Positions 16,837 to 54,099 of a stretch of DNA of 64,000 nt are shown here, piece after piece (position 1 is the first letter of the stretch; each line of letters begins with the position of its first letter). A program made the position numbers and the translations under genes. The notes below the pieces were generated by a model. It searched no databases. It worked only from the letters and a program-made list of their open reading frames with translations, and was not told the DNA's origin. The DNA comes from Candidatus Methanomethylicia archaeon (GTDB taxonomy: Archaea > Thermoproteota > Methanomethylicia > Culexarchaeales > Culexarchaeaceae), in contig JAVYVS010000001.1 in assembly GCA_038727515.1 (NCBI GenBank), positions 602,946 to 666,945 of the forward strand. Direction: 5' to 3'.

Positions 16837-16912
16837 TGGTAGCCGGGGGGAGATTCGAACTCCCGTCGACGGGGCCAAAGCCCGCCATGCTTGGCCGCTA
16901 CACCACCCGGCT
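16837..16912 (-). tRNA. tRNA-Gln (anticodon UUG), CCA encoded
   Basis: Reverse complement reads AGCCGGGTGGTGTAGCGGCCAAGCATGGCGGGCTTTGGCCCCGTCGACGGGAGTTCGAATCTCCCCCCGGCTACCA: 7-bp acceptor stem AGCCGGG/CCCGGCT, T-arm GGGAG-TTCGAAT-CTCCC, anticodon stem GCGGG/CCCGT with loop CTTTGGC (U33, anticodon TTG, G37); resembles crenarchaeal tRNA-Gln. Confidence 0.85.
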
Positions 16913-38920: not shown

Positions 38921-39289
38921 TTGAGCATGGAAGATTATATTTTAGAAATGATCACAGCATCTCAAGAAAAATTTGAAATAAAACTGTTAAGGGCAATAGC
39001 CCCATTAACAACATTCGAAATTATAAAGAAATTACCATTAAAAGCAACATTACTAGTTTATAAGGGGAAAATATACATACCAATAGAAATCAATATCAAA
39101 GGGGAAAAAACTTTGAATAAAGCTTTAAAAGGGGATGTAACATACTCCAGTATAAATAAAGCAATAATAATACATTTAGAAGAAGAATCCGTAAAATCAG
39201 AAACAAAGATTGGAGTAGCTTTAAACATTGAAAATCTAGGTAAGATTAAAAGTGGAACAAGCATATTATTAAGGAGGAAGGAATATTGA
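38921..39289 (+). CDS. hypothetical protein (small beta-rich)
   Basis: 122 aa; no confident family; 4-nt overlap with nrdG-like gene. Confidence 0.3.
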   Translation: MSMEDYILEMITASQEKFEIKLLRAIAPLTTFEIIKKLPLKATLLVYKGKIYIPIEINIKGEKTLNKALKGDVTYSSINKAIIIHLEEESVKSETKIGVALNIENLGKIKSGTSILLRRKEY

Positions 39290-40095
39290 GGGTATATGTA
39301 GCTGGAATAAGAGATTTAAGTTTAATAGATTATCCAAGACATCCATGTATAGTAATATGGTTTCAAGGATGCAACTTTAGATGCCAATACTGCTATAACT
39401 ATGAGTTATGGGAAATGAGAAATGAAAATTTGTTAATGATAGATGAAATAGTTAGGAGGATAATTGAAGTAAAAGATATTGTAGAAGCATGTAAGATAAC
39501 TGGTGGAGAACCATCAATACAATCTGAAGCTCTAATGAGTATTGGAGAAGAATGTAAAAAGATAAAATTAAAATTTGGAATTGATACAAATGGTACGAAT
39601 CCAAGAATAATAGAAAAGTTAATTGAAGGGGAAATAGTAGATCATATAGCAATAGATTTGAAAGCACCATTAAATGTTAATGATTACACAAAAATAGTTG
39701 GAATTAAAATAGAACAAAAAGACCTAGAAAATATAAAGAGAACAATAAAATTAGCTTTTGAAAGCAATTTAGAAAGTGTTGAAATAAGAATCCCAATAAT
39801 TAGGAGTCTAAATAATAATCCAGATAAAATGTTGAATTTGAAAAATGATCTATTAGAGTTGGGATACGTGAAAGCTATTGAAGATGGAAAAAATGTAAGT
39901 ATAGAGGTATTAGAGGTTATACATGAATTAGCTGCAAATAAAGAACTTAGATTACAAAAGAATTTAACAATCAATGAAATAGTATATTTAAGTGAAGCTA
40001 TAGGTTTACCAAAGATATATATTAGACATAGAGATTTAGGTTTAAGGATGAGCTTAAGTCATGCAAAGGAAAACATTAGGAAAATTAAATCTTAA
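39286..40095 (+). CDS. nrdG: anaerobic ribonucleoside-triphosphate reductase activating protein-like radical SAM enzyme (NrdG)
   Basis: 269 aa; radical-SAM motif FQGCNFRCQYCYN (C-x3-C-x2-C) near N-terminus; convergent and overlapping with nrdD; C-terminal extension beyond typical NrdG length. Confidence 0.7.
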   Translation: MRVYVAGIRDLSLIDYPRHPCIVIWFQGCNFRCQYCYNYELWEMRNENLLMIDEIVRRIIEVKDIVEACKITGGEPSIQSEALMSIGEECKKIKLKFGIDTNGTNPRIIEKLIEGEIVDHIAIDLKAPLNVNDYTKIVGIKIEQKDLENIKRTIKLAFESNLESVEIRIPIIRSLNNNPDKMLNLKNDLLELGYVKAIEDGKNVSIEVLEVIHELAANKELRLQKNLTINEIVYLSEAIGLPKIYIRHRDLGLRMSLSHAKENIRKIKS

Positions 40096-42343
40096 TTCTA
40101 TACCTATCTTTCAACTCCCTCCTCTTAGCCATATTCCATCCACTAACATCTTGATAGTATCCAGTAACTCTACTCCACCATTTCACATTATTAGAACCAC
40201 AATTTGGACATTTATCATTTAACAATGGAGAAACAGTTGCACAATCACTACATATAGTTAAATCCTTAGTATAACTGAAATATCCTATTTGAGTTTCCGT
40301 AGCAATTTTCTTCGTGAGTTTAAATAGAGCTTCAGGATCTGGATATGCTTCACCAAGCCATATATGGAATATGTTTCCACCAGATAATAATGGGAAGAAT
40401 TTATGTTCAATATCTATTTTTCTAGCTAATGGGATGTTTGCACCAACATATACATGTGTACCATTGCTATAGTATACTGGGACATCCCTTTCATCGCTCT
40501 CAAGCATCTTCTTAGCGGTTTCCAAATCCCCTTTAACAACTTTACTAGCTGCATCTCTATATTCATCTGATAATAGATCTGCAACTGCAAGCCTCTGAGC
40601 GCAACTTTCAGCTGGAGTTCTAGCTAAAGCAATTTTATAATTAAATTTAGATTCCAATTCATCTCTATATTTACGCATAGCTAAAATTACTTTTACAAGT
40701 AATTTCACAGCTTCATTAGATTCATGCAATTGATAACCAGTATGCCATTGAGCCATTTCATTACCGCCAACTAAACCTATAACGAAAACCAAATTATTGA
40801 AATCCACTGCAGGAGGACCTCTCTTACCAGTTCTAGGATCTAATGGTCTTTGAGTTGCAAAGGGTAGACGTCCATTCTTAATCATAAGGTTCATCCACTT
40901 TAATTTAACTTTAAATACATCTAATGATAAATCCATGAGTCTATATATTTCTTCTAAGAGTTTATCATCATCACCCTTAGCCTTATATGCAACTCTAGGA
41001 AGATTTAAACTAACAACTTGCCATGCACCCATGCTAAAATGTTTACCATCAATAAAGTAAACTTTATCATTAAATGAGGAATCACTTTCAGGGGTTTCAG
41101 TGAAAGAGTATGCACAACATTGGTAACATGATACACCCTTACCATATCCTCTATATGCTGGAAGAGCATTATCAAAGTATGGAGAACCGAATTTTGAAAC
41201 AACTTTATGGACGAGCATCCATTCATCATAGTAATCATCTTTAAGAGCTTCAGGAGTTATGTAAGTTTCAAGTTTTGGGAAATTGAATGGTTTACCCCAA
41301 AAATCACCTTTAAATGCAACTTCATATATAGCTCTAAAGAATAATCTAGCTTCTTCTTCAAAACTTCCATAGGTATCCTCACTAACAACACCTCTATAAA
41401 CAACAGGTTTATCACGCCAAATCTCGGGGACTGTTGGTGAAAGTTGAATATTGGAAAAGACTAATTGACCTCCTCTAGCAACATAACATTGAGTTAATTC
41501 ATAAAACATCATTTGAGCCAATTGTTTGATTTCTTCATATGATAATCCTTCCATAAATGGTGCAAGAAAAACATTATAGTTATAGAAACCCTGTCCACCT
41601 GAGAAATTAGTTTGTGCAGCTGCAAGTATCTTAACTGAATGTAAAATAGCTACTTCAGGATGTTTAGCAGGACCAGCAACACTAGTTTTAAATCCAGTTC
41701 CATCGGGCATTAAACCATAATATAAGAAGTATCGTAAATCATGATCTTGACAGAATGGTCTAGTTCCAAAATACTCTAAATCATGAATATGAATATCACC
41801 CTTCAAATGAGCATCAGCAATATGTATGGGTAGGAGCAAGAGATATTGTTCTTTAGAAAGCTTATCAGCCTTCTTCTTATGGGAAGTTTCAGGATTAGGC
41901 TGTAAATTAGCGTTTTCCTTAGCTTCAAAACCTAATCCAATATCGATGAGATAAGCATCATATACAGGTGCTCCAACTCTAGTTAAAACATTCCTATATA
42001 CTATGTATACAGGCTTATTATTAGACCATTCAAGCAAAATATTATTTACAACTTCTCTAATTAATGGAGCACTCACGAAAAATGCCTTCATACTCTTAAT
42101 TCTACGTTCAGCTTCTAAAGCTATAGCCTCAGCTTCCTCCCTACTTATAGGAGGAATACCAAAGAATTCTTCTGCCAATTGAGTTTCCTTTAAAAGCTGT
42201 TTTACAATTTTAGATCTATCCCAAGGCTCAAAATATCCACTACTAGTTCGAACAAGTATTAATTCATCATCCTTACCCTTAAGATTAACAGTAGATTTAT
42301 CGATCCAACCATTATATCCATTAAGCCAATCAACCAAGCTCAA
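40085..42343 (-). CDS. nrdD: anaerobic ribonucleoside-triphosphate reductase (class III, NrdD)
   Basis: 752 aa; ATP-cone-like N-terminus, C-terminal Zn ribbon CSDCATV...CPNCGS and glycyl radical motif RVTGYY. Confidence 0.9.
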   Translation of the reverse strand: MSLVDWLNGYNGWIDKSTVNLKGKDDELILVRTSSGYFEPWDRSKIVKQLLKETQLAEEFFGIPPISREEAEAIALEAERRIKSMKAFFVSAPLIREVVNNILLEWSNNKPVYIVYRNVLTRVGAPVYDAYLIDIGLGFEAKENANLQPNPETSHKKKADKLSKEQYLLLLPIHIADAHLKGDIHIHDLEYFGTRPFCQDHDLRYFLYYGLMPDGTGFKTSVAGPAKHPEVAILHSVKILAAAQTNFSGGQGFYNYNVFLAPFMEGLSYEEIKQLAQMMFYELTQCYVARGGQLVFSNIQLSPTVPEIWRDKPVVYRGVVSEDTYGSFEEEARLFFRAIYEVAFKGDFWGKPFNFPKLETYITPEALKDDYYDEWMLVHKVVSKFGSPYFDNALPAYRGYGKGVSCYQCCAYSFTETPESDSSFNDKVYFIDGKHFSMGAWQVVSLNLPRVAYKAKGDDDKLLEEIYRLMDLSLDVFKVKLKWMNLMIKNGRLPFATQRPLDPRTGKRGPPAVDFNNLVFVIGLVGGNEMAQWHTGYQLHESNEAVKLLVKVILAMRKYRDELESKFNYKIALARTPAESCAQRLAVADLLSDEYRDAASKVVKGDLETAKKMLESDERDVPVYYSNGTHVYVGANIPLARKIDIEHKFFPLLSGGNIFHIWLGEAYPDPEALFKLTKKIATETQIGYFSYTKDLTICSDCATVSPLLNDKCPNCGSNNVKWWSRVTGYYQDVSGWNMAKRRELKDRYRIKI

Positions 42344-45219: not shown

Positions 45220-45732
45220 TTGAGTGAAGAAGATAGGGAAAAATTAAAGGCTTTGATAAAGGAGAAGATAGACCAATTAAATAAGGAAATAGAAGTACTT
45301 AAAATGTGTCTAGAAATCATAAGTGAAAAATCAGTAGCAACACAAAAGAAAGCAATGGAAACAACGATAGAAGCAAAAATTCCACCTCCACAACCACAAA
45401 AAATTGAAACCACCGAAAGAAAACTTTTATCAAGTATAAATGAGGGGAAAGAAAACATTGCAAACATATATGTTGAAAAAGAAAAAATAATAATAGTTCC
45501 CGGAAGAAATGTAGAAGTAGATATAAATTCAAGAGATTTTAAAGATTTCTTCATTAAAAAGGTTTTATTGGGGTTGAAGAAGGAGAAGGCAGCAGTAACA
45601 TATGAAGTTAAAGATTCAAATGGAATACTTAAGGAAGTTATAATTAGAAATGTATCTGAGGAGAAGGATATAAGAAGGATAGAGGGAGCAGTAAAATGGA
45701 CTTTTAGTAGATTTCTAAAAACTAAGCCTTAA
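45220..45732 (+). CDS. hypothetical coiled-coil protein, paralog family member A
   Basis: 170 aa; N-terminal heptad region, conserved C-terminal block AVTYEVKDSNGILKEVIIRNV...AVKWTFSRF; paralog of 60228..60815. Confidence 0.35.
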   Translation: MSEEDREKLKALIKEKIDQLNKEIEVLKMCLEIISEKSVATQKKAMETTIEAKIPPPQPQKIETTERKLLSSINEGKENIANIYVEKEKIIIVPGRNVEVDINSRDFKDFFIKKVLLGLKKEKAAVTYEVKDSNGILKEVIIRNVSEEKDIRRIEGAVKWTFSRFLKTKP

Positions 45733-46349: not shown

Positions 46350-47417
46350 ATGTCATACAAGATAAAGATACGGAAAAGTACAATTATAATTGCAGCATCT
46401 TATGGGGTAGGATTAGCAATAATATTTATGTTAATCAATTATATTGGATTGAATAAAGTTTTTGAAAATATAATGAGTAGAATGGTTTACCAATTATTCA
46501 TAGCAACATTCATACTTGACATTGCTGGATTGTTAATATACGCATTAATATGGTATTTACTTTTAATTGGAGTAGGATCAAAAGTGAAATTCATGACTTC
46601 AATAACATCAACTTGGGCTAGCATATTTATAATGTATCTAAGTCCCACAGGTGTAGTACTGGAATTATTGAAACTCGTCTTAACTAATAAGGAGGGGAAA
46701 GTACCCATTGGGAGGGGGATTGCAGCATTAACAATGCAAAGAATAATATATTCCATTAGTTTCATATCCATAGCAATATCAAGCTACATAGTGGTTCAAT
46801 ATAGATATATGGTTATAGGGGAAGCCATTGGTAGAATAATAGCGGCTTTAATAATAATAGCCTTAATCACAGCAATAGCCTTAATAATTGTAGGGAGAAG
46901 AACGGAGAAATTAGAAATGATAATATTTAGGATATATGAAAAATATCAAAATAGAATTGAGAAAATGATATCAAAATACAATCCAACGGAAGTAATAAAC
47001 TCAATATCATCAACAATAAATGAATTTAAAAATTCATTTAAGTCATTATGCTCTAAGAAGACTATACTTATAACAACCTTTATATTAACAACGATAAATT
47101 GGATGTTAAATGTAATGATATTATACGTTGTTCTACTATCACTTGGATATAAAGTTTCAATATGGATCTTAATGTTAATAATGGTATTATGTGAATTCGT
47201 ACAAATGACCCCAATAATTATACCTGGAATGCTTGGAATAATAGAAACAGTAATGACAGCAACATTACAAATCTTTGGAATACCACTAGAAATATCAGGT
47301 ACAGCTTCAATACTAACTAGATTGGCAACCTTCTGGTTCGATATACCAATAACAGCTATTGCAGCATCATATTATGGAATAAAATACCTATTAAAAGGAG
47401 TAATTAAAGAAGATTAA
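46350..47417 (+). CDS. UPF0104/LPG-synthase-TM-like (flippase-like) membrane protein
   Basis: 355 aa, about 8 TM helices, Lys-rich cytoplasmic loop in the middle; topology reminiscent of UPF0104. Confidence 0.35.
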   Translation: MSYKIKIRKSTIIIAASYGVGLAIIFMLINYIGLNKVFENIMSRMVYQLFIATFILDIAGLLIYALIWYLLLIGVGSKVKFMTSITSTWASIFIMYLSPTGVVLELLKLVLTNKEGKVPIGRGIAALTMQRIIYSISFISIAISSYIVVQYRYMVIGEAIGRIIAALIIIALITAIALIIVGRRTEKLEMIIFRIYEKYQNRIEKMISKYNPTEVINSISSTINEFKNSFKSLCSKKTILITTFILTTINWMLNVMILYVVLLSLGYKVSIWILMLIMVLCEFVQMTPIIIPGMLGIIETVMTATLQIFGIPLEISGTASILTRLATFWFDIPITAIAASYYGIKYLLKGVIKED

Positions 47418-47421
47418 CTTT

Positions 47422-49023
47422 TTAACTAGAATCCAATACAATACCACTTAAAGCTCTATCTGAAACAACCCTTACAATCTTAACTTTAGCAATTTTACCC
47501 ACAAATTTTGAAGCAACCTTTGAATTTTCAATAAATATTACAGGTCCATGAATAAATGGATATCCAATAAAACCTTTACCTCTAAGAGAATTAACTATAT
47601 ATGCATCTAAAACAGCTCCAATCCATTTATCCTTCAATTTAGAATTTATTCTTGAAGCTTTATCAACAATTATCTTACCAACAGCATCAACATGACTTGG
47701 GGGAGCTTTAGGAAAATCTGAGAAAGCAGACATCGGAAGTGGAGAAAACCTATATACAGTTATCTTTTCAGCTCCAGCTTTAACAGCTTCATCCATAACC
47801 TTTGAAGTTTCAATAGCAATATTAACGTCTTGATTTGGTAGTCCATGAATAAAGTATGCATATGGAATTAAACCATACTTCCTTAAGAGTCTAATAGCTT
47901 TAATAGCTTGACTAGGAGTTGAAGGTCTACCAAGGGATATGGCATAAGAATCTACTCCAGTTTCAACACCAATACTAGTTGGAGTACCACGTAAATATCT
48001 ACCTAAAACTTTTGCTACTTCTTCATCTACAAGTGAAGGTTTAACATTTTCTATGGAGAAGAAAATTTTTAAGCTAAATTCACTCTCTAAGCTTTTAATA
48101 CTTCCAAGAAGCTTCTCAATTTCATTAAGATTTGGTGGAGGATTTAATGGGTCTGTTAAAGGTTCAGGTTCCACTAGAATATCTCTCCCATAATCTAAGA
48201 AATCTGAAGCTCCCAAGATAAATCGTCTACAACCCATTTCAATTAAACCTTTAATTTCATTTACAATAGATTCTACAGATCTACTCCTAGATGGGCCGAA
48301 AAGGCTTGGAACAGAACAATATCCACAACCAGGTGGAATATTCATTGGGCAATAGTATCTATCGCTTAAAGAACTACTATAACATTTTCCACAATCATTA
48401 CATTTACGTCCATCTGGAAGCATAATTTTAGTTCTAAGAAAATTACTACAACCTCTAACAACTTCAACATAAATTCTACAAGCATAATAACTCCAATAAT
48501 TCCTAACAACTTTAACAGATGGTTTAAATGAATCAAGTTCAAATCTAGACATAAACGGTCTAAGATCATTAACCTTCACATTGGAATCTATACGATAAGC
48601 TAACCCCTTAACATCTTTGATAGATTCTATATCTTCAAAATCAAATTTATTGAAAAATTCTACAAGAGATTTTTCAGCTTCACCAATAAATGCAATATCA
48701 AAACCAGCTTTAACTAAAGCTTCATAAGGATCAGAAGTCAATGGACCTCCAATAATACTCAATCCACCATTAAACTTATCCCATAACCTCTTAATCCTAC
48801 GAGCCATGGGAAGATCAACACTCATAGCACTAACCATTAATACATCAAAATCTTTAAAGATAGAAGTATTTGAAAGAACACTATAATATGGTTTTAAATC
48901 ATAATCAAAACCAAGTTTCTCCAAGACTCCAGCAATAGTTCTCGGCCCACAACCAATAACATCTAACGTCGCATATCTACCAACACTCCCAGAACCAAGA
49001 ACATCAACAATTAAAATTTTCAT
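47422..49023 (-). CDS. B12-binding-like domain / radical SAM protein with Cys-rich insertion
   Basis: 533 aa; N-terminal Rossmann-like MKILIVDVLGSGSVG; radical SAM core with VRGCSNF ... [about 35-aa insert CNDCGKC...YYC] ... PPGCGYCSVPSLFG. Confidence 0.55.
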   Translation of the reverse strand: MKILIVDVLGSGSVGRYATLDVIGCGPRTIAGVLEKLGFDYDLKPYYSVLSNTSIFKDFDVLMVSAMSVDLPMARRIKRLWDKFNGGLSIIGGPLTSDPYEALVKAGFDIAFIGEAEKSLVEFFNKFDFEDIESIKDVKGLAYRIDSNVKVNDLRPFMSRFELDSFKPSVKVVRNYWSYYACRIYVEVVRGCSNFLRTKIMLPDGRKCNDCGKCYSSSLSDRYYCPMNIPPGCGYCSVPSLFGPSRSRSVESIVNEIKGLIEMGCRRFILGASDFLDYGRDILVEPEPLTDPLNPPPNLNEIEKLLGSIKSLESEFSLKIFFSIENVKPSLVDEEVAKVLGRYLRGTPTSIGVETGVDSYAISLGRPSTPSQAIKAIRLLRKYGLIPYAYFIHGLPNQDVNIAIETSKVMDEAVKAGAEKITVYRFSPLPMSAFSDFPKAPPSHVDAVGKIIVDKASRINSKLKDKWIGAVLDAYIVNSLRGKGFIGYPFIHGPVIFIENSKVASKFVGKIAKVKIVRVVSDRALSGIVLDSS

Positions 49024-49034
49024 GTTTTAAAATT

Positions 49035-49313
49035 TCACCTTATGGGACGCCTAATTGTAGCTATAGAATTATCGGCAATACCTAAAGAAGCCATTTGAGC
49101 AGGATTAGCCCAAACCTCCCTTTCAGGTACATTATCATCAACTAAAACCGTCAATATACATTTACGTTTACCAGCAATTACAACCTCGATTTTATCAGAT
49201 ATCTGGAGTTGTTTAACCATTGCACTATTCATTTTAGCCATACCATTTTCAACACCATCAACACGTCTAATCCTCAACCTCTTTTCAGGAACACCTGACA
49301 ATAATTTCACCAA
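49035..49313 (-). CDS. small double-psi beta-barrel (CDC48/VAT-N-like) protein
   Basis: 92 aa; resembles VAT-N fragment (IEVVIAGKRKCILTVLV...WANPAQMASLGIADNSIATIRR); 11 nt upstream of radical SAM gene. Confidence 0.3.
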   Translation of the reverse strand: MVKLLSGVPEKRLRIRRVDGVENGMAKMNSAMVKQLQISDKIEVVIAGKRKCILTVLVDDNVPEREVWANPAQMASLGIADNSIATIRRPIR

Positions 49314-49353
49314 ATAATAGTGGATAACAGGATTATTATAAATATTAATTCAA

Positions 49354-51084
49354 TTATTTAAAGGGTATTCCAAGTTCATCAAAAGATAACTTGTATTTAA
49401 AGTATCCATGAAGTTTATATGGTAATTCATCAACGCTAACTCTAACTTGCCTCCATGAATCTCTATCCCTCAAAGTTACTGTATTATCATTGAGAGATTG
49501 ATAATCAATAGTTATAGCTATTGGAACACCAATTTCATCAGCTCTAGCATACCTTCTACCAATAGATCCAGATTCATCATAATCTACATCAAATCCTTCA
49601 TCCAAAAGTAATTGATAAACTTTTAAAGCATATTCTGGTAAACCATCTTTAGAAACTAATGGTAAAACAACAACTTGTATTGGTGAAATATCCCTAGGTA
49701 GTGAAAGTATACTTCTACCCTCCTTTTCACCATAAGAATACTCTAAAACTGCATAAACAATTCTATCAGCACCAAAAGATGGTTCAACAACATGTGGTAT
49801 TATATGTTTACCTTTAACTTCAACAATTTCACTACTAATAATGAAATCATCTCTTTCAAGTCTAAAACCTTCAACTTCCACATACCCCTTAGACTTAAAC
49901 TCCTCCTCCAAGGAAGAATAATTGATAGAATTGAGAATACGCTTAACATTAGATCCAAACTTAGAATTTAGAGAATCCATATTTGGTATATATTTAACCC
50001 TTTTCTCAATTATCGGTTTATCAAATTGCTTATAAACTCTTAAATCCACACCACTAAAAGCCATATGTCTACTAAGGTCATAATCAGTCCTATAAGAATA
50101 CCCTGCAATTTCAACATATCCCCATCTCTCCAATTTAACAACTTGATCAAAAGTTTGAACGGAATAATGAGCTCTCTCCATGGGTGGTTTATCTATAAAC
50201 ATTTGAGAATTAAAGGGTATGCCAAGTGATTCAGCAAATTTTCTACCTAAAACCATGAAGTAAGCTTGCCATTCATTCAATATTATCCCTTTATCTAAAG
50301 CTTCACTAACAGATATAGTTATAGGATCAAAAGTTTTTGAAGAAGCTTGAGATTGAGGAACAATTCTCAAAAGTTCATTTTTAACATCATCTATAAATCT
50401 ACATTTAGAATCTTCAGGATCAAAGAATAATTCTACCTCCATTATAGTGAACTCTCTAAGCCTTATTGGACCTTGTCTAGGTGAAATCTCATTCCTCAAA
50501 ACACGTCCAATTTGAGCTATACCAATAGGCAATTTACCTCTACAAGCATCATAAACACGTTTAAACGCTAAAAACATTCCTTGAGCAGCTTCAGGTCTAC
50601 CATAACCAACATCTTCACTATACGGTCCAATAACAGTTTTAAACAATAAACTAAACTTTCTAACATCACTAAGAGCGCCTCCACATTCAGGACATTTCAA
50701 TCCCTTTTCATGAATAATATTATTCAAATCATCTTGAGAGAGAGATTCCAATCCACTCATACCAGTTAACTGTTCAATGAGGTGATCAGCCCTATATTTC
50801 CTACCACAAGATAAACATTCCACAAGGAAATCAGTAAAATGCTCTAAATGGCCAGATGCTTCCAAAACCTTACTTGGAAGTATAATGGGGGTCTCAATTT
50901 CAAAAATGAAATCTCTATGTCTATGAATAAAGAATTGCCTCCATTTATTTTCAATCTTATGTTTTAGCAATGTTCCAAGAGGGCCGAAATCAATAAATCC
51001 TCTAACACCACCATAAATCTCCATAGAAGGCCATAGAAAACCTCTTCTCCTTGCAAATTCCATTAAACGCTCAAATCTATCCAT
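49354..51084 (-). CDS. glyS: glycyl-tRNA synthetase (archaeal/eukaryotic alpha2 type)
   Basis: GlyRS N-terminus MDRFERLMEFARRRGFLWPSMEIYGG, class II motifs, C-terminal anticodon-binding domain; ORF extends to 51186 but conserved start is the ATG at 51084. Confidence 0.9.
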   Translation of the reverse strand: MDRFERLMEFARRRGFLWPSMEIYGGVRGFIDFGPLGTLLKHKIENKWRQFFIHRHRDFIFEIETPIILPSKVLEASGHLEHFTDFLVECLSCGRKYRADHLIEQLTGMSGLESLSQDDLNNIIHEKGLKCPECGGALSDVRKFSLLFKTVIGPYSEDVGYGRPEAAQGMFLAFKRVYDACRGKLPIGIAQIGRVLRNEISPRQGPIRLREFTIMEVELFFDPEDSKCRFIDDVKNELLRIVPQSQASSKTFDPITISVSEALDKGIILNEWQAYFMVLGRKFAESLGIPFNSQMFIDKPPMERAHYSVQTFDQVVKLERWGYVEIAGYSYRTDYDLSRHMAFSGVDLRVYKQFDKPIIEKRVKYIPNMDSLNSKFGSNVKRILNSINYSSLEEEFKSKGYVEVEGFRLERDDFIISSEIVEVKGKHIIPHVVEPSFGADRIVYAVLEYSYGEKEGRSILSLPRDISPIQVVVLPLVSKDGLPEYALKVYQLLLDEGFDVDYDESGSIGRRYARADEIGVPIAITIDYQSLNDNTVTLRDRDSWRQVRVSVDELPYKLHGYFKYKLSFDELGIPFK

Positions 51085-51166
51085 AGTAACACCAACATAA
51101 ACTAAAAGGATAAACAAATACATTAAAATATTTCTAGAGGCAAATGATTTAAAACGTCTAGGGGGA

Positions 51167-52078
51167 TTGATGTTTGAAATGAGCAAGTTAAAATTTCATT
51201 TAACTGATGAAAATAAATACTTTAATGGTAGACAATTCAGCATTGAAGAAGCTGAATTCATACTATTTGGAGCGCCATTTGATGCAACATCAACATATAG
51301 AACAGGCTCAAGATATGCGCCTCAAGCCATAAGGTGTGCATCAATAAACATAGAGACATATAGCTTTAGAACATTAATGGATGCGTTAGACTTAAAGATA
51401 CATGATGCTGGAGATCTACCACAAACCTCAAACACGGAGGAAATTATAGAGAGAATAAGTGAAGTTATAAGTGAAATTGTAGAAGATGGGAAAATACCAA
51501 TAATGATTGGTGGAGAACATACAATAACTTACGGAGCGGTAAAAGCATTGAAAAATATATCAACAATAATATTTGATGCACACATGGATTTAAGAGATGA
51601 ATATCCAATGGGTGTAAAGATTGGTCATGCAACTGTTTCTAGAAGGATAGGTGAAGTTTTAGGGGTAGAGAAATTATTGATAATGGGTGTAAGAGCAACA
51701 TGTAAAGAAGAAATAGAGTATGCAAAAAAGATTGGTTTAATCTTTAAAACATCGATGGAAATGATTGAAAAAGAAGTTTGTGAATACATTGGGAAAATTA
51801 GTAATGAGAGGTTGTGGATATCAATAGATATGGATGTATTAGATCCATCAATAGCTCCAGGCGTAGCAAACCCAGAGCCTGAAGGAATAAATTTATCGAA
51901 ATTACTAGACACACTAGAAAAATTAGTTTCAAACAATAGGGTAATTGGTTTCGATATAGTGGAAGTTACACCAGCTTATGATAATGGAATAACATCAATA
52001 GTTGCATCAAAAATAATATTTGAATTAGCATGTATGATAAAGAATTCATTAAGGAATAGTGAATACACTACAATCTAA
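51167..52078 (+). CDS. speB: agmatinase (ureohydrolase family)
   Basis: 303 aa; FGAPFDATSTYRTGSRYAPQAIR, DAHMDLRD, SIDMDVLDP Mn-binding motifs. Confidence 0.8.
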   Translation: MMFEMSKLKFHLTDENKYFNGRQFSIEEAEFILFGAPFDATSTYRTGSRYAPQAIRCASINIETYSFRTLMDALDLKIHDAGDLPQTSNTEEIIERISEVISEIVEDGKIPIMIGGEHTITYGAVKALKNISTIIFDAHMDLRDEYPMGVKIGHATVSRRIGEVLGVEKLLIMGVRATCKEEIEYAKKIGLIFKTSMEMIEKEVCEYIGKISNERLWISIDMDVLDPSIAPGVANPEPEGINLSKLLDTLEKLVSNNRVIGFDIVEVTPAYDNGITSIVASKIIFELACMIKNSLRNSEYTTI

Positions 52079-52749: not shown

Positions 52750-54099
52750 GTGGTAAATATGAGTACAGTAGCAAAATTTGCTAGAGTTGGAGCACATAGC
52801 CATATAAAGGGTCTTGGATTAAAGGATGGAAAAGCATTAATGAAAGCAGATGGAATGATAGGACAAATAAAAGCTAGAGAAGCCGCTGGAATAATAGTTG
52901 AATTAATAAAGCAAGGTAAAATGGCTGGAAGAGCAGTTTTACTAGCAGGACCTCCAGGAACTGGAAAAACGGCTGTAGCAGTAGCTATTGCAAAAGAGCT
53001 TGGAGAAGACGTTCCATTCATAGCAATATCAGGTTCAGAAATATACTCTAGTGAATTAAAGAAAACAGAAGTTTTAATGCAAACTATGAGGAAAGCTATA
53101 GGTGTTAGAATACATGAAATGAGGAAAGTCTATGAGGGATTGGTAACACAATTGGATATAAAAATGACTAGACATCCATACAATCCATACCAGCAAATCC
53201 CAGAAAATGCAAGAATAACATTGAAGACTAAAAGCGAAGAGAGAAGGTTAAGTGTAGGATCAGCAATAGCCATGGAACTTATACAGAAAGGTGTTAGAGA
53301 AGGAGATGTTATATGGATAGATTCAGAAACTGGAAAAGTTACAAGGGTTGGTAGAGGAGAAGAGTATACTGGAGAAAAATATGATATAGAAGCAGAAACA
53401 TATGTTCCAACACCTTCTGGACCAGTATTTAAAGAAAAGGAATTCATATATACTGTAACGCTACATGATTTAGATGTACAAGTACATTCAAGATCTGGAG
53501 GTATATTCAGTTTACTATTTGGTGGAAGAGAAGAAAAGGAAATACCGCCAGACGTAAGACAAGAGGTAGATAATTTAGTTAAGAAGTGGGTTGACGATAA
53601 TAAAGCGGAAATTATACCTGGAGTTATGTTTATAGATGAAGCATCAGCACTTGATATAGAAGCATTTTCATTCTTAACAAGAGCATTGGAAAGTGAACTT
53701 GCACCAATAATGATACTTGCAACGAATAGGGGAATCACGAAGATTAGAGGTACAGATATAGAATCACCACATGGAATACCATTAGACCTTCTGGATAGAC
53801 TACTAATAATAACCACAGAAAAATACAGTAAGGAAGAGATAAGGGAGATATTGAAGATAAGGGCAGAGGAAGAAGATATAGTTATAGATGATGATGCACT
53901 AGAACTACTTACGGAGATAGGAGAGAAAACATCATTAAGATATGCAGTTCAAATGCTTACACCAGCATATATAAATGCTAGAAAGAAGGGTAGGAAAAGA
54001 GTTACTGTGGAAGATGTGGAAGAAGTGAAGAGATTATTTGCAGATGTTAAAGAATCAATGAGATATCTAAAGGAGCATGAAGAAGAAATGCTAAAGTAG
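52750..54099 (+). CDS. RuvB-like AAA+ ATPase (TIP49/TBP-interacting protein homolog)
   Basis: 449 aa; N-terminal HSHIKGLGL, Walker A GPPGTGKT, domain II insertion, Walker B FIDEA. Confidence 0.85.
   Translation: MVNMSTVAKFARVGAHSHIKGLGLKDGKALMKADGMIGQIKAREAAGIIVELIKQGKMAGRAVLLAGPPGTGKTAVAVAIAKELGEDVPFIAISGSEIYSSELKKTEVLMQTMRKAIGVRIHEMRKVYEGLVTQLDIKMTRHPYNPYQQIPENARITLKTKSEERRLSVGSAIAMELIQKGVREGDVIWIDSETGKVTRVGRGEEYTGEKYDIEAETYVPTPSGPVFKEKEFIYTVTLHDLDVQVHSRSGGIFSLLFGGREEKEIPPDVRQEVDNLVKKWVDDNKAEIIPGVMFIDEASALDIEAFSFLTRALESELAPIMILATNRGITKIRGTDIESPHGIPLDLLDRLLIITTEKYSKEEIREILKIRAEEEDIVIDDDALELLTEIGEKTSLRYAVQMLTPAYINARKKGRKRVTVEDVEEVKRLFADVKESMRYLKEHEEEMLK

Follow-up and report, generated by a model that had tools for sequence, protein, structure and literature searches.

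The present analysis concerns a radical S-adenosylmethionine (SAM) enzyme whose cluster-binding motif is split by a cysteine-rich insert, together with a small double-psi beta-barrel protein encoded beside it, both from a Candidatus Methanomethylicia archaeon (GenBank assembly GCA_038727515.1, contig JAVYVS010000001.1). The window, to which all coordinates refer, is the whole 64,000-nucleotide (nt) stretch of DNA analyzed, from position 602,946 to 666,945 of the forward strand. The radical SAM gene occupies 47422..49023 on the minus strand, encoding 533 amino acids (aa) from an ATG start to a stop codon at 47422..47424, and the small gene occupies 49035..49313 on the same strand, encoding 92 aa from a TTG start; exactly 11 nt (49024..49034) separate the two, and both the coordinates and this gap are as given in an original prediction made from the sequence alone. 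An AlphaFold model built on the family alignment (predicted local distance difference test score, pLDDT, 94.6; predicted template modelling score, pTM, 0.92; loop pLDDT ~95) divides the enzyme into three domains: an N-terminal Rossmann domain of the cobalamin-binding type (residues ~1-170; 48514..49023, minus strand), a radical SAM core with a partial (beta/alpha)6 TIM-barrel fold (residues ~171-445; 47689..48513, minus strand), and a long helix followed by a five-stranded TRAM-like beta-barrel (residues ~446-533; 47425..47688, minus strand), which the original prediction had overlooked. Pfam Radical_SAM (PF04055) matches residues 228-399 with 55.6 bits against a cut-off of 29.5.

Radical SAM enzymes are defined by a CX3CX2C loop. 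A contiguous canonical copy was looked for and none was found anywhere in the 533-aa protein; the homologous three cysteines are instead spaced CX40CX2C, a variant of the motif rather than its absence. The protein has cysteines at residues 25, 182, 192, 208, 211, 214, 225, 233, 236, and 265, and translation of 48316..48450, CSNFLRTKIMLPDGRKCNDCGKCYSSSLSDRYYCPMNIPPGCGYC, spans the split motif, C192-X40-C233-X2-C236. All on the minus strand, the first ligand of the SAM cluster, Cys192 in VRGC (48448..48450), is followed by a 40-residue insert (residues 193-232; 48328..48447) and then by ligands 2 and 3 in C233-G-Y-C236 (48316..48327). The original prediction had placed about 35 residues between VRGC and the CGYC pair, where the spacing is in fact 40, and had correctly recognized four extra cysteines inside the loop, C208, C211, C214, and C225, which carry the pattern C208-X2-C211-X2-C214-X10-C225-P226. 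In a HMMER alignment with MgmA, a cobalamin-binding relative, the HRGC of its HRGCPGNCTFC motif aligns to the query VRGC (C192) and its PGNCTFCQVP aligns to PPGCGYCSVP, so that the insertion falls exactly between ligands 1 and 2. C233 and C236 also align with the CxxC of RimO, and the match to the NCBIfam model TIGR04013 is split in two stretches, consistent with an insertion at the loop.

In a 64-sequence alignment of the family with 52% mean column identity, exactly seven cysteine columns are invariant (192, 208, 211, 214, 225, 233, and 236), which is, on this alignment, far beyond chance; at least 90% of the same sequences also have P226, and no conserved cysteine was found among them in residues 1-180. 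CX40CX2C is the modal spacing among family members. Among 163 full-length members, four loop cysteines are present in ~153, five in two, and none in six, with no member carrying one to three; these counts were corrected by hand from a script that gave 149 members with four, nine with none, two with five, and three unparsed, the correction reassigning four regular-expression mis-hits, in which CxxC was matched inside the loop, and the three unparsed members. The six members with cysteine-free loops (P0161, P0162, P0163, P0168, P0171, and P0189, of which P0162 is Fervidicoccus fontis A0A7J3ZKK3) keep VRGCSN and PGCAYC on either side of a loop of 11-26 residues. When twelve TIGR04013 proteins were used to root a neighbour-joining tree, drawn without support values, five of these members grouped in a single clade within the four-cysteine family, and P0189 branched from another point inside it. 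Six active-site residues peculiar to the family, E325, N326, K328, E354, Y390, and Y424, occur in 81-84 of the 84 family sequences compared, a tally that pools the six cysteine-free members with the others and leaves little room for those members to have lost them.

Because the cysteine-free lineages keep C192, C233, and C236, C192 is best taken as the first SAM-cluster ligand, as its place in the MgmA alignment and its invariance also suggest, and the loop site as separable and accessory. An arrangement with C225 as the first ligand (CX7CX2C) was rejected, since the cysteine-free variants keep C192 and are without C225. The alignments strongly support the assignment of the SAM-cleaving [4Fe-4S] cluster to C192, C233, and C236, and they likewise strongly support a four-cysteine loop site that is independent of these ligands and ancestral, and whose cysteines disappeared together on at least two occasions while the enzyme persisted; the loop site would so be dispensable for the core chemistry. 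A divergent subgroup (P0176, P0178, P0181-P0184, and P0187), which comprises Promethearchaeota-type sequences, including the Promethearchaeota member P0176, and unnamed metagenome contigs, has CX3CX2C in place of the loop CX2CX2C, and most of these proteins bear an extra cysteine four residues before ligand 1 (VE-C-VRG-C), making eight conserved-looking cysteines.

To delimit the family, 5.8 billion proteins were searched by word index and 1.84 billion cluster representatives exhaustively by HMMER. The first search returned 765 relatives, the best 93% identical, of which the top 120 are 515-579 aa long, cover the whole query, and share 44-93% identity with it; the second returned 66 matches at E <= 1e-30. 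Family members give full-length, single-stretch matches (486-567 aa) down to ~1e-69, with the cysteine-free P0189 at 1e-58, whereas the next proteins are 380-496 aa long, appear at E >= 1e-21 with the match broken in two at the loop, and have the canonical CX3CX2C. The gap in E-value between the family and TIGR04013 is sharp (1e-58 vs 1e-21); the family is monophyletic and well bounded. The closest canonical relatives are true TIGR04013 (MJ_1487) proteins, which score 400-450 bits, and TIGR04013 is also the best NCBIfam match of the query, at 127.1 bits against a cut-off of 251 (62-129 bits for other family members). The query scores 72.3 bits on TIGR04014 (MgmA/MJ_0865; cut-off 360), 50.4 bits on TIGR00089 (the MiaB/RimO subfamily; cut-off 251), and 16.1 bits (E 0.0034) on TIGR04072, a model of lipid-modifying B12-radical SAM enzymes (cut-off 360).

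No Pfam or NCBIfam family model reached its threshold beyond the generic superfamily domain, and the Pfam scan of the query gave no match to PF00919 (UPF0004). The original prediction had been unable to place the enzyme, and classification with hidden Markov models also leaves it in no named family. It had further considered that the insert might be common and already described in a known subgroup; the insert is indeed common within the family, and our literature searches found no published description of either the family or a cysteine-bearing insert within the motif. For MJ1487, the sole statement in print is a speculative BzaE-like assignment (PMC11742838). The family is without a name or a dedicated model, and the expanded-loop variants that have been catalogued are without metal ligands.

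By structural alignment, the N-terminal domain matches MgmA and B12-binding domains, so that, on the model, the B12-binding-like character originally predicted for it holds. The query scores 28.7 bits on PF02310, against a cut-off of 32.1, and this domain is recorded for most homologues. S65, G92-G93-P94, and G114-E115-x-E117 are invariant in the family and common to TIGR04013 proteins, and the D21/G24/G26/P27/R28 loop, M67, and D70 are family-specific. In structural comparison of the whole model, MgmA (PDB 9CCB) scored 28.2 (367 residues aligned at 22% identity), MiaB 25.8 (411 residues aligned), RimO 24.5, AprD4 23.0, CysS and TsrM 22.5, and isolated cobalamin-binding domains ~10-11; a Foldseek comparison agrees with these results. 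At the other end of the protein, the TRAM portion of the NCBIfam MiaB/RimO model can be aligned with the C-terminal domain as far as residue 520, and Pfam TRAM is matched by 10 of 28 family C-termini, with a best E-value of 4e-6. The median isoelectric point (pI) of the family is 9.07, and the C-terminal part has a median net charge of +6. To our knowledge, no characterized enzyme combines a B12-type with a TRAM-like domain.

To assess the distribution of the family, one genome per GTDB species was scanned, and relatives were identified in at least 308 archaeal species. The best 80 of the 308 relatives, on whose loci all neighbourhood counts given here are based, are all from archaeal metagenome-assembled genomes (MAGs) and originate from Methanomethylicia, Bathyarchaeia, Desulfurococcales, Pyrodictiaceae, Nitrososphaeria-labelled MAGs, and Asgard archaea. 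The Asgard carriers are Odin, Baldr, Jord, Frey, Hel, and Asgardarchaeum, and Fervidicoccus also carries the family; Culexarchaeum nevadense has a protein of 74% identity in full synteny with the window, whose source is accordingly read as Culexarchaeia-like. One contig labelled 'Patescibacteria group bacterium' (L051, DATLAV010000204.1) pairs a gene of this archaeal radical SAM family with a neighbouring 170-aa open reading frame (ORF) of the Bathyarchaeia type, and is probably mis-binned.

Among the 80 loci, the radical SAM gene has glycyl-tRNA synthetase (GlyRS) nearby in 25, aIF1/SUI1 in ~20, and the tRNA-splicing endonuclease EndA in 18, and the GlyRS neighbourhood extends over several phyla and three different gene arrangements. 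The 170-aa ORF of the window (45220..45732, plus strand), which has a coiled-coil-like N-terminus and is without a Pfam or NCBIfam match, recurs within a few kb of the radical SAM gene in 27 of the 80, in Methanomethylicia and Bathyarchaeia. A neighbourhood of translation genes fits a translation-related role for the enzyme. In Culexarchaeum and related Methanomethylicia-type archaea (L001, L002, and L004), a TIP49 gene belongs to a conserved block with SUI1, an agmatinase-like gene, and GlyRS; in the window, this TIP49/RuvB-like AAA+ ATPase is encoded at 52750..54099 on the plus strand (Pfam TIP49, 489 bits).

The small protein was modelled with a pLDDT of 92.6 as two interlocked beta-beta-alpha-beta units, the topology of a double-psi beta-barrel. 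Its start codon is uncertain, giving a length of 88-92 aa; alternative starts are GTG 49310 and TTG 49301, and the latter yields the 88-aa form typical of most homologues, which are mostly 88-89 aa long and begin with MS.(V/P)PE(K/R)R. The original prediction had described the protein as VAT-N-like, which is borne out for the fold but not for the closest relative: the best structural match is domain 2 of the crenarchaeal ribosomal protein eS6, ahead of VAT-N. Sequence matches are weak (S6e model, E 0.001; eS6 residues 42-106, E 0.06), and a match to Molydop_binding is sub-threshold. In Sulfolobales, the eS6 region matched by the small protein is an inserted double-psi barrel, described as 'domain 2' in a 2025 cryo-electron microscopy study (PMC11698992). 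The small protein may be a free-standing ribosome-associated counterpart of this domain.

In the window, the small gene probably shares a transcript with the radical SAM gene. As read from the DNA, a TATA-like TTTATAA (49336..49342, minus strand) lies ~23-26 nt upstream of the first possible starts of the small gene and is its putative promoter, and a Shine-Dalgarno-like AGGTGA (49035..49040, minus strand), overlapping the small-gene stop at 11 nt from the radical SAM ATG, is a candidate ribosome-binding site for the radical SAM gene. The original prediction linked the two proteins by the 11-nt gap, but across loci the small gene tracks GlyRS rather than the radical SAM gene specifically. GlyRS, on the same strand, is the immediate upstream neighbour of the small gene in 20 of the 22 small-gene loci; of the other two, L006 has only a GlyRS fragment, 214 nt upstream, and the L005 contig starts 60 nt before the small gene, short of the GlyRS position (the small-gene related loci are L001-L007, L018, L020, and L023-L078). 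Its position relative to the radical SAM gene varies: it is immediately upstream in Methanomethylicia-type loci, with gaps of 1-18 nt, convergent in Desulfurococcales, and 2 kb downstream in Odin and Baldr. A search with a profile of the small protein identified 490 unnamed homologues, from Thermoproteota, including Thermofilum and Vulcanisaeta, plus Odin and Baldr, and its named matches included no Bathyarchaeia; in Thermofilum pendens, the small-protein gene has neither GlyRS nor the radical SAM gene nearby.

An obligate partnership of the small protein with the radical SAM enzyme was rejected on these grounds, namely its tracking of GlyRS, its variable position relative to the radical SAM gene, and the T. 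pendens gene with neither neighbour. We regard the small protein as a GlyRS-linked orphan rather than a dedicated partner. The small proteins of Desulfurococcales and Pyrodictiaceae (L023, L025, L027, L031, L040, L041, L052, L058, L062, L068, L071, and L078) have an N-terminal extension of 25-60 residues with a conserved lysine-rich segment and DIKALVA(V/I)IPPA.

The upstream neighbour of the small gene in the window is GlyRS (glycine--tRNA ligase; 49354..51186, minus strand; NCBIfam TIGR00389, 593 bits), which is divergent from an arginase-family (agmatinase-like) ORF at 51167..52078 on the plus strand. As called, the GlyRS ORF has a TTG start 37 codons ahead of the NCBIfam match and a 20-nt overlap with the arginase-family ORF, and its true start is probably an internal methionine (MDRFERLMEF...). 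A flippase-like membrane protein gene (46350..47417) abuts the 3' end of the radical SAM gene. Farther away, another radical SAM gene, encoding a Fer4_12 domain (39286..40095, plus strand), is convergent and slightly overlapping with the gene for the anaerobic (class III) ribonucleotide reductase NrdD (40085..42343, minus strand), and is read as encoding the NrdD activase; because NrdD and its radical SAM activase are both encoded in the window, the host is taken to be an anaerobe. The sole tRNA in the 64-kb window, which is also its sole Rfam match, is tRNA-Gln(TTG) at 16837..16912 on the minus strand.

Taken together, these observations suggest, with an even chance of being right as a whole, an unnamed three-domain radical SAM enzyme of TACK and Asgard archaea with a split motif, a second cluster, C-methylation activity, and an RNA or translation-related substrate. 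In the proposed mechanism, the four loop cysteines would coordinate a further [4Fe-4S] cluster that, lying only a few residues away from the SAM cluster, supplies the latter with electrons and serves as a built-in ferredoxin module rather than as a catalytic or sacrificial cluster; the N-terminal domain would bind cobalamin, as in MgmA, the closest structural relative; the enzyme would perform a radical C-methylation; and the basic TRAM-like C-terminal domain would position RNA or a substrate associated with the ribosome or with translation.

The components of this proposal differ in strength. CX2CX2CXnCP is the classical ferredoxin [4Fe-4S] signature, and because the loop is of this type and its profile, when compared with the PDB, gave as its only match the [4Fe-4S] motif of PsrB (weak and non-significant, E 0.57), we consider it rather probable that the loop binds a [4Fe-4S] cluster. 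The original prediction of an auxiliary metal site in the loop is the natural reading of an invariant four-cysteine insert; the rubredoxin-like knuckle that was envisaged for it does not fit, CX2CX2CX10CP being ferredoxin-type and not a set of paired CX2C knuckles. Given the eight-residue distance of C225 from C233, the loop site should lie near the SAM cluster, and since the site has been lost while the active site was seemingly kept, its most economical role would be that of an electron relay or stabilizer, which parallels the proposal made for the ferredoxin domain that glycyl-radical activating enzymes can do without. Cobalamin-dependent methylation, suggested by the kinship with MgmA and TIGR04013, has a little under an even chance, the caution being AprD4, which has a B12-type Rossmann domain without cobalamin. 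An RNA or translation-machinery substrate is suggested by the TRAM-like domain together with the basic charge and the genes nearby, and has a slightly lower chance.

Several observations weigh against this interpretation. The loop cysteines might coordinate zinc rather than a cluster. In the query, Pfam TRAM is matched at E 0.21, which makes the TRAM assignment weak for this protein, and when the C-terminal domain was compared as a profile with PDB sequences, no solved protein matched significantly; moreover, the TRAM domain of RimO serves a protein substrate, so that a TRAM domain is no proof of an RNA substrate. The conserved neighbours are housekeeping genes whose proximity may be mere retained ancestral gene order, and Bathyarchaeia loci are without the GlyRS neighbourhood.

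If the loop held structural zinc or another mononuclear metal, stiffening a long loop in thermophiles, there would be no second Fe-S cluster and no redox role. Gain and loss of the four cysteines as a unit is equally typical of structural zinc sites, many of the hosts are thermophiles by their record titles, the site is dispensable in the Fervidicoccus clade, and residues 207-220 give a marginal match to Pfam zf-C2H2_11 (E 0.015). The cysteine pattern argues in the other direction, since CX2CX2C with a distal CP is that of ferredoxins and zinc ribbons or knuckles normally have two CX2C pairs; the Asgard variants with CX3CX2C still keep three close cysteines and one distal, a cluster-like arrangement; and the host is an anaerobe with other Fe-S radical enzymes, namely NrdD and its activase (39286..42343). 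We therefore regard a zinc site as somewhat unlikely. A different use of a loop cluster would be sulfur insertion of the methylthiotransferase kind, the loop cluster replacing the UPF0004 auxiliary cluster of MiaB, RimO, and MtaB as the sulfur site. Four cysteines would leave no open iron for a (methyl)sulfide, whereas the auxiliary clusters of methylthiotransferases have three (PMC9477430), and lineages without the four cysteines seem to keep their active site (81-84 of 84 sequences). With only 50 bits on the MiaB/RimO model against a cut-off of 251, no conserved cysteine in the N-terminal domain, and B12-domain motifs in common with TIGR04013 and MgmA, sulfur insertion appears improbable.

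The enzyme may also be independent of cobalamin, like AprD4, with a Rossmann domain that is structural or binds substrate, a non-methylating radical reaction, and a substrate that need not be RNA. This is doubtful, because MgmA, the best relative by both structure and sequence, binds cobalamin, and because the GGP and GExE motifs are invariant and common with TIGR04013. The original prediction had mentioned lipid-modifying enzymes such as the glycerol dialkyl glycerol tetraether (GDGT) ring synthases GrsA/B as a possible lead; archaeal lipid enzymes of the B12-type radical SAM group do exist (GrsA/B, Gmm; PMC11214058), and the flippase-like membrane protein gene abutting the 3' end of the radical SAM gene might suggest a GDGT ring synthase or methylase. 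This membrane-protein neighbour is present in only seven loci, however, six of Methanomethylicia/Culexarchaeia type and one from a Thermoprotei MAG, and the broadly conserved neighbours are translation genes. Together with the 16 bits on TIGR04072, the TRAM-like domain, and the basic pI, this makes a lipid substrate very improbable; the enzyme is closest to MgmA, the MJ_1487 family, and MiaB/RimO, and identity with Gmm or GrsA/B was rejected on score and domain content.

The strongest form of the proposed C-methylating enzyme, in which the family would be the first of class B type to modify RNA or a ribosomal component, with a ferredoxin module in its loop and a C-methyl or other radical modification as its product, across TACK and Asgard archaea, is itself unlikely on present evidence. 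If the substrate is indeed RNA or ribosomal, the nearest archaeal relatives of eukaryotes would carry a modification to which no enzyme has been assigned. A conserved family that splits CX3CX2C by a 40-residue, putatively metal-binding module is a new architectural solution, and its sister lineages with and without the four-cysteine site offer a natural experiment on the electron route to the SAM cluster.

Among known systems, MgmA (TIGR04014/MJ0865, PDB 9CCB), the glutamine C-methyltransferase of methyl-coenzyme M reductase (MCR), was crystallized with cobalamin in its Rossmann domain (PMC11796369). Its substrate is MCR, its motif is the contiguous CPGNCTFC, and it has neither the four-cysteine loop nor the TRAM-like barrel. 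The nearest sequence family, the uncharacterized TIGR04013 (MJ_1487), has N-domain motifs and the radical SAM core in common with the query family, but its proteins are 380-496 aa long, have the canonical CX3CX2C, are without the TRAM-like domain, and differ at the conserved active-site positions. In MiaB, MtaB, and RimO, a three-cysteine auxiliary cluster is held in the N-terminal UPF0004 domain, whereas the four-cysteine site of the query lies inside the radical SAM loop.

The glycyl-radical activating enzymes 4-Hpad-AE, BSS-AE, and IbsAE have a ferredoxin domain whose auxiliary [4Fe-4S] clusters are dispensable for SAM cleavage and for activation (PMC10239695). Like the query, they have a ferredoxin-like cysteine-rich insertion adjoining the cluster motif, and the dispensability of their clusters parallels that of the loop site; unlike the query, in which a single CX2CX2CX10CP stands between the first and second motif cysteines, they carry two CX2CX2CX3C motifs in a separate domain. 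That domain is placed after an intact CX3CX2C, and the activating enzymes are otherwise unrelated, being without B12-type or TRAM domains. Expansion of the loop is known from other radical SAM enzymes, QueE for example having CX14CX2C. Catalogued loops from CX4 to CX11CX2C are family-specific and tolerated between the first and second cysteines (RadicalSAM.org, PMC9477430). The known expansions amount to 4-14 residues and are without metal ligands, whereas that of the query comprises 40 residues with a four-cysteine site; the cysteine-free variants of the family, CX11 to CX26, resemble this known expanded-loop class.

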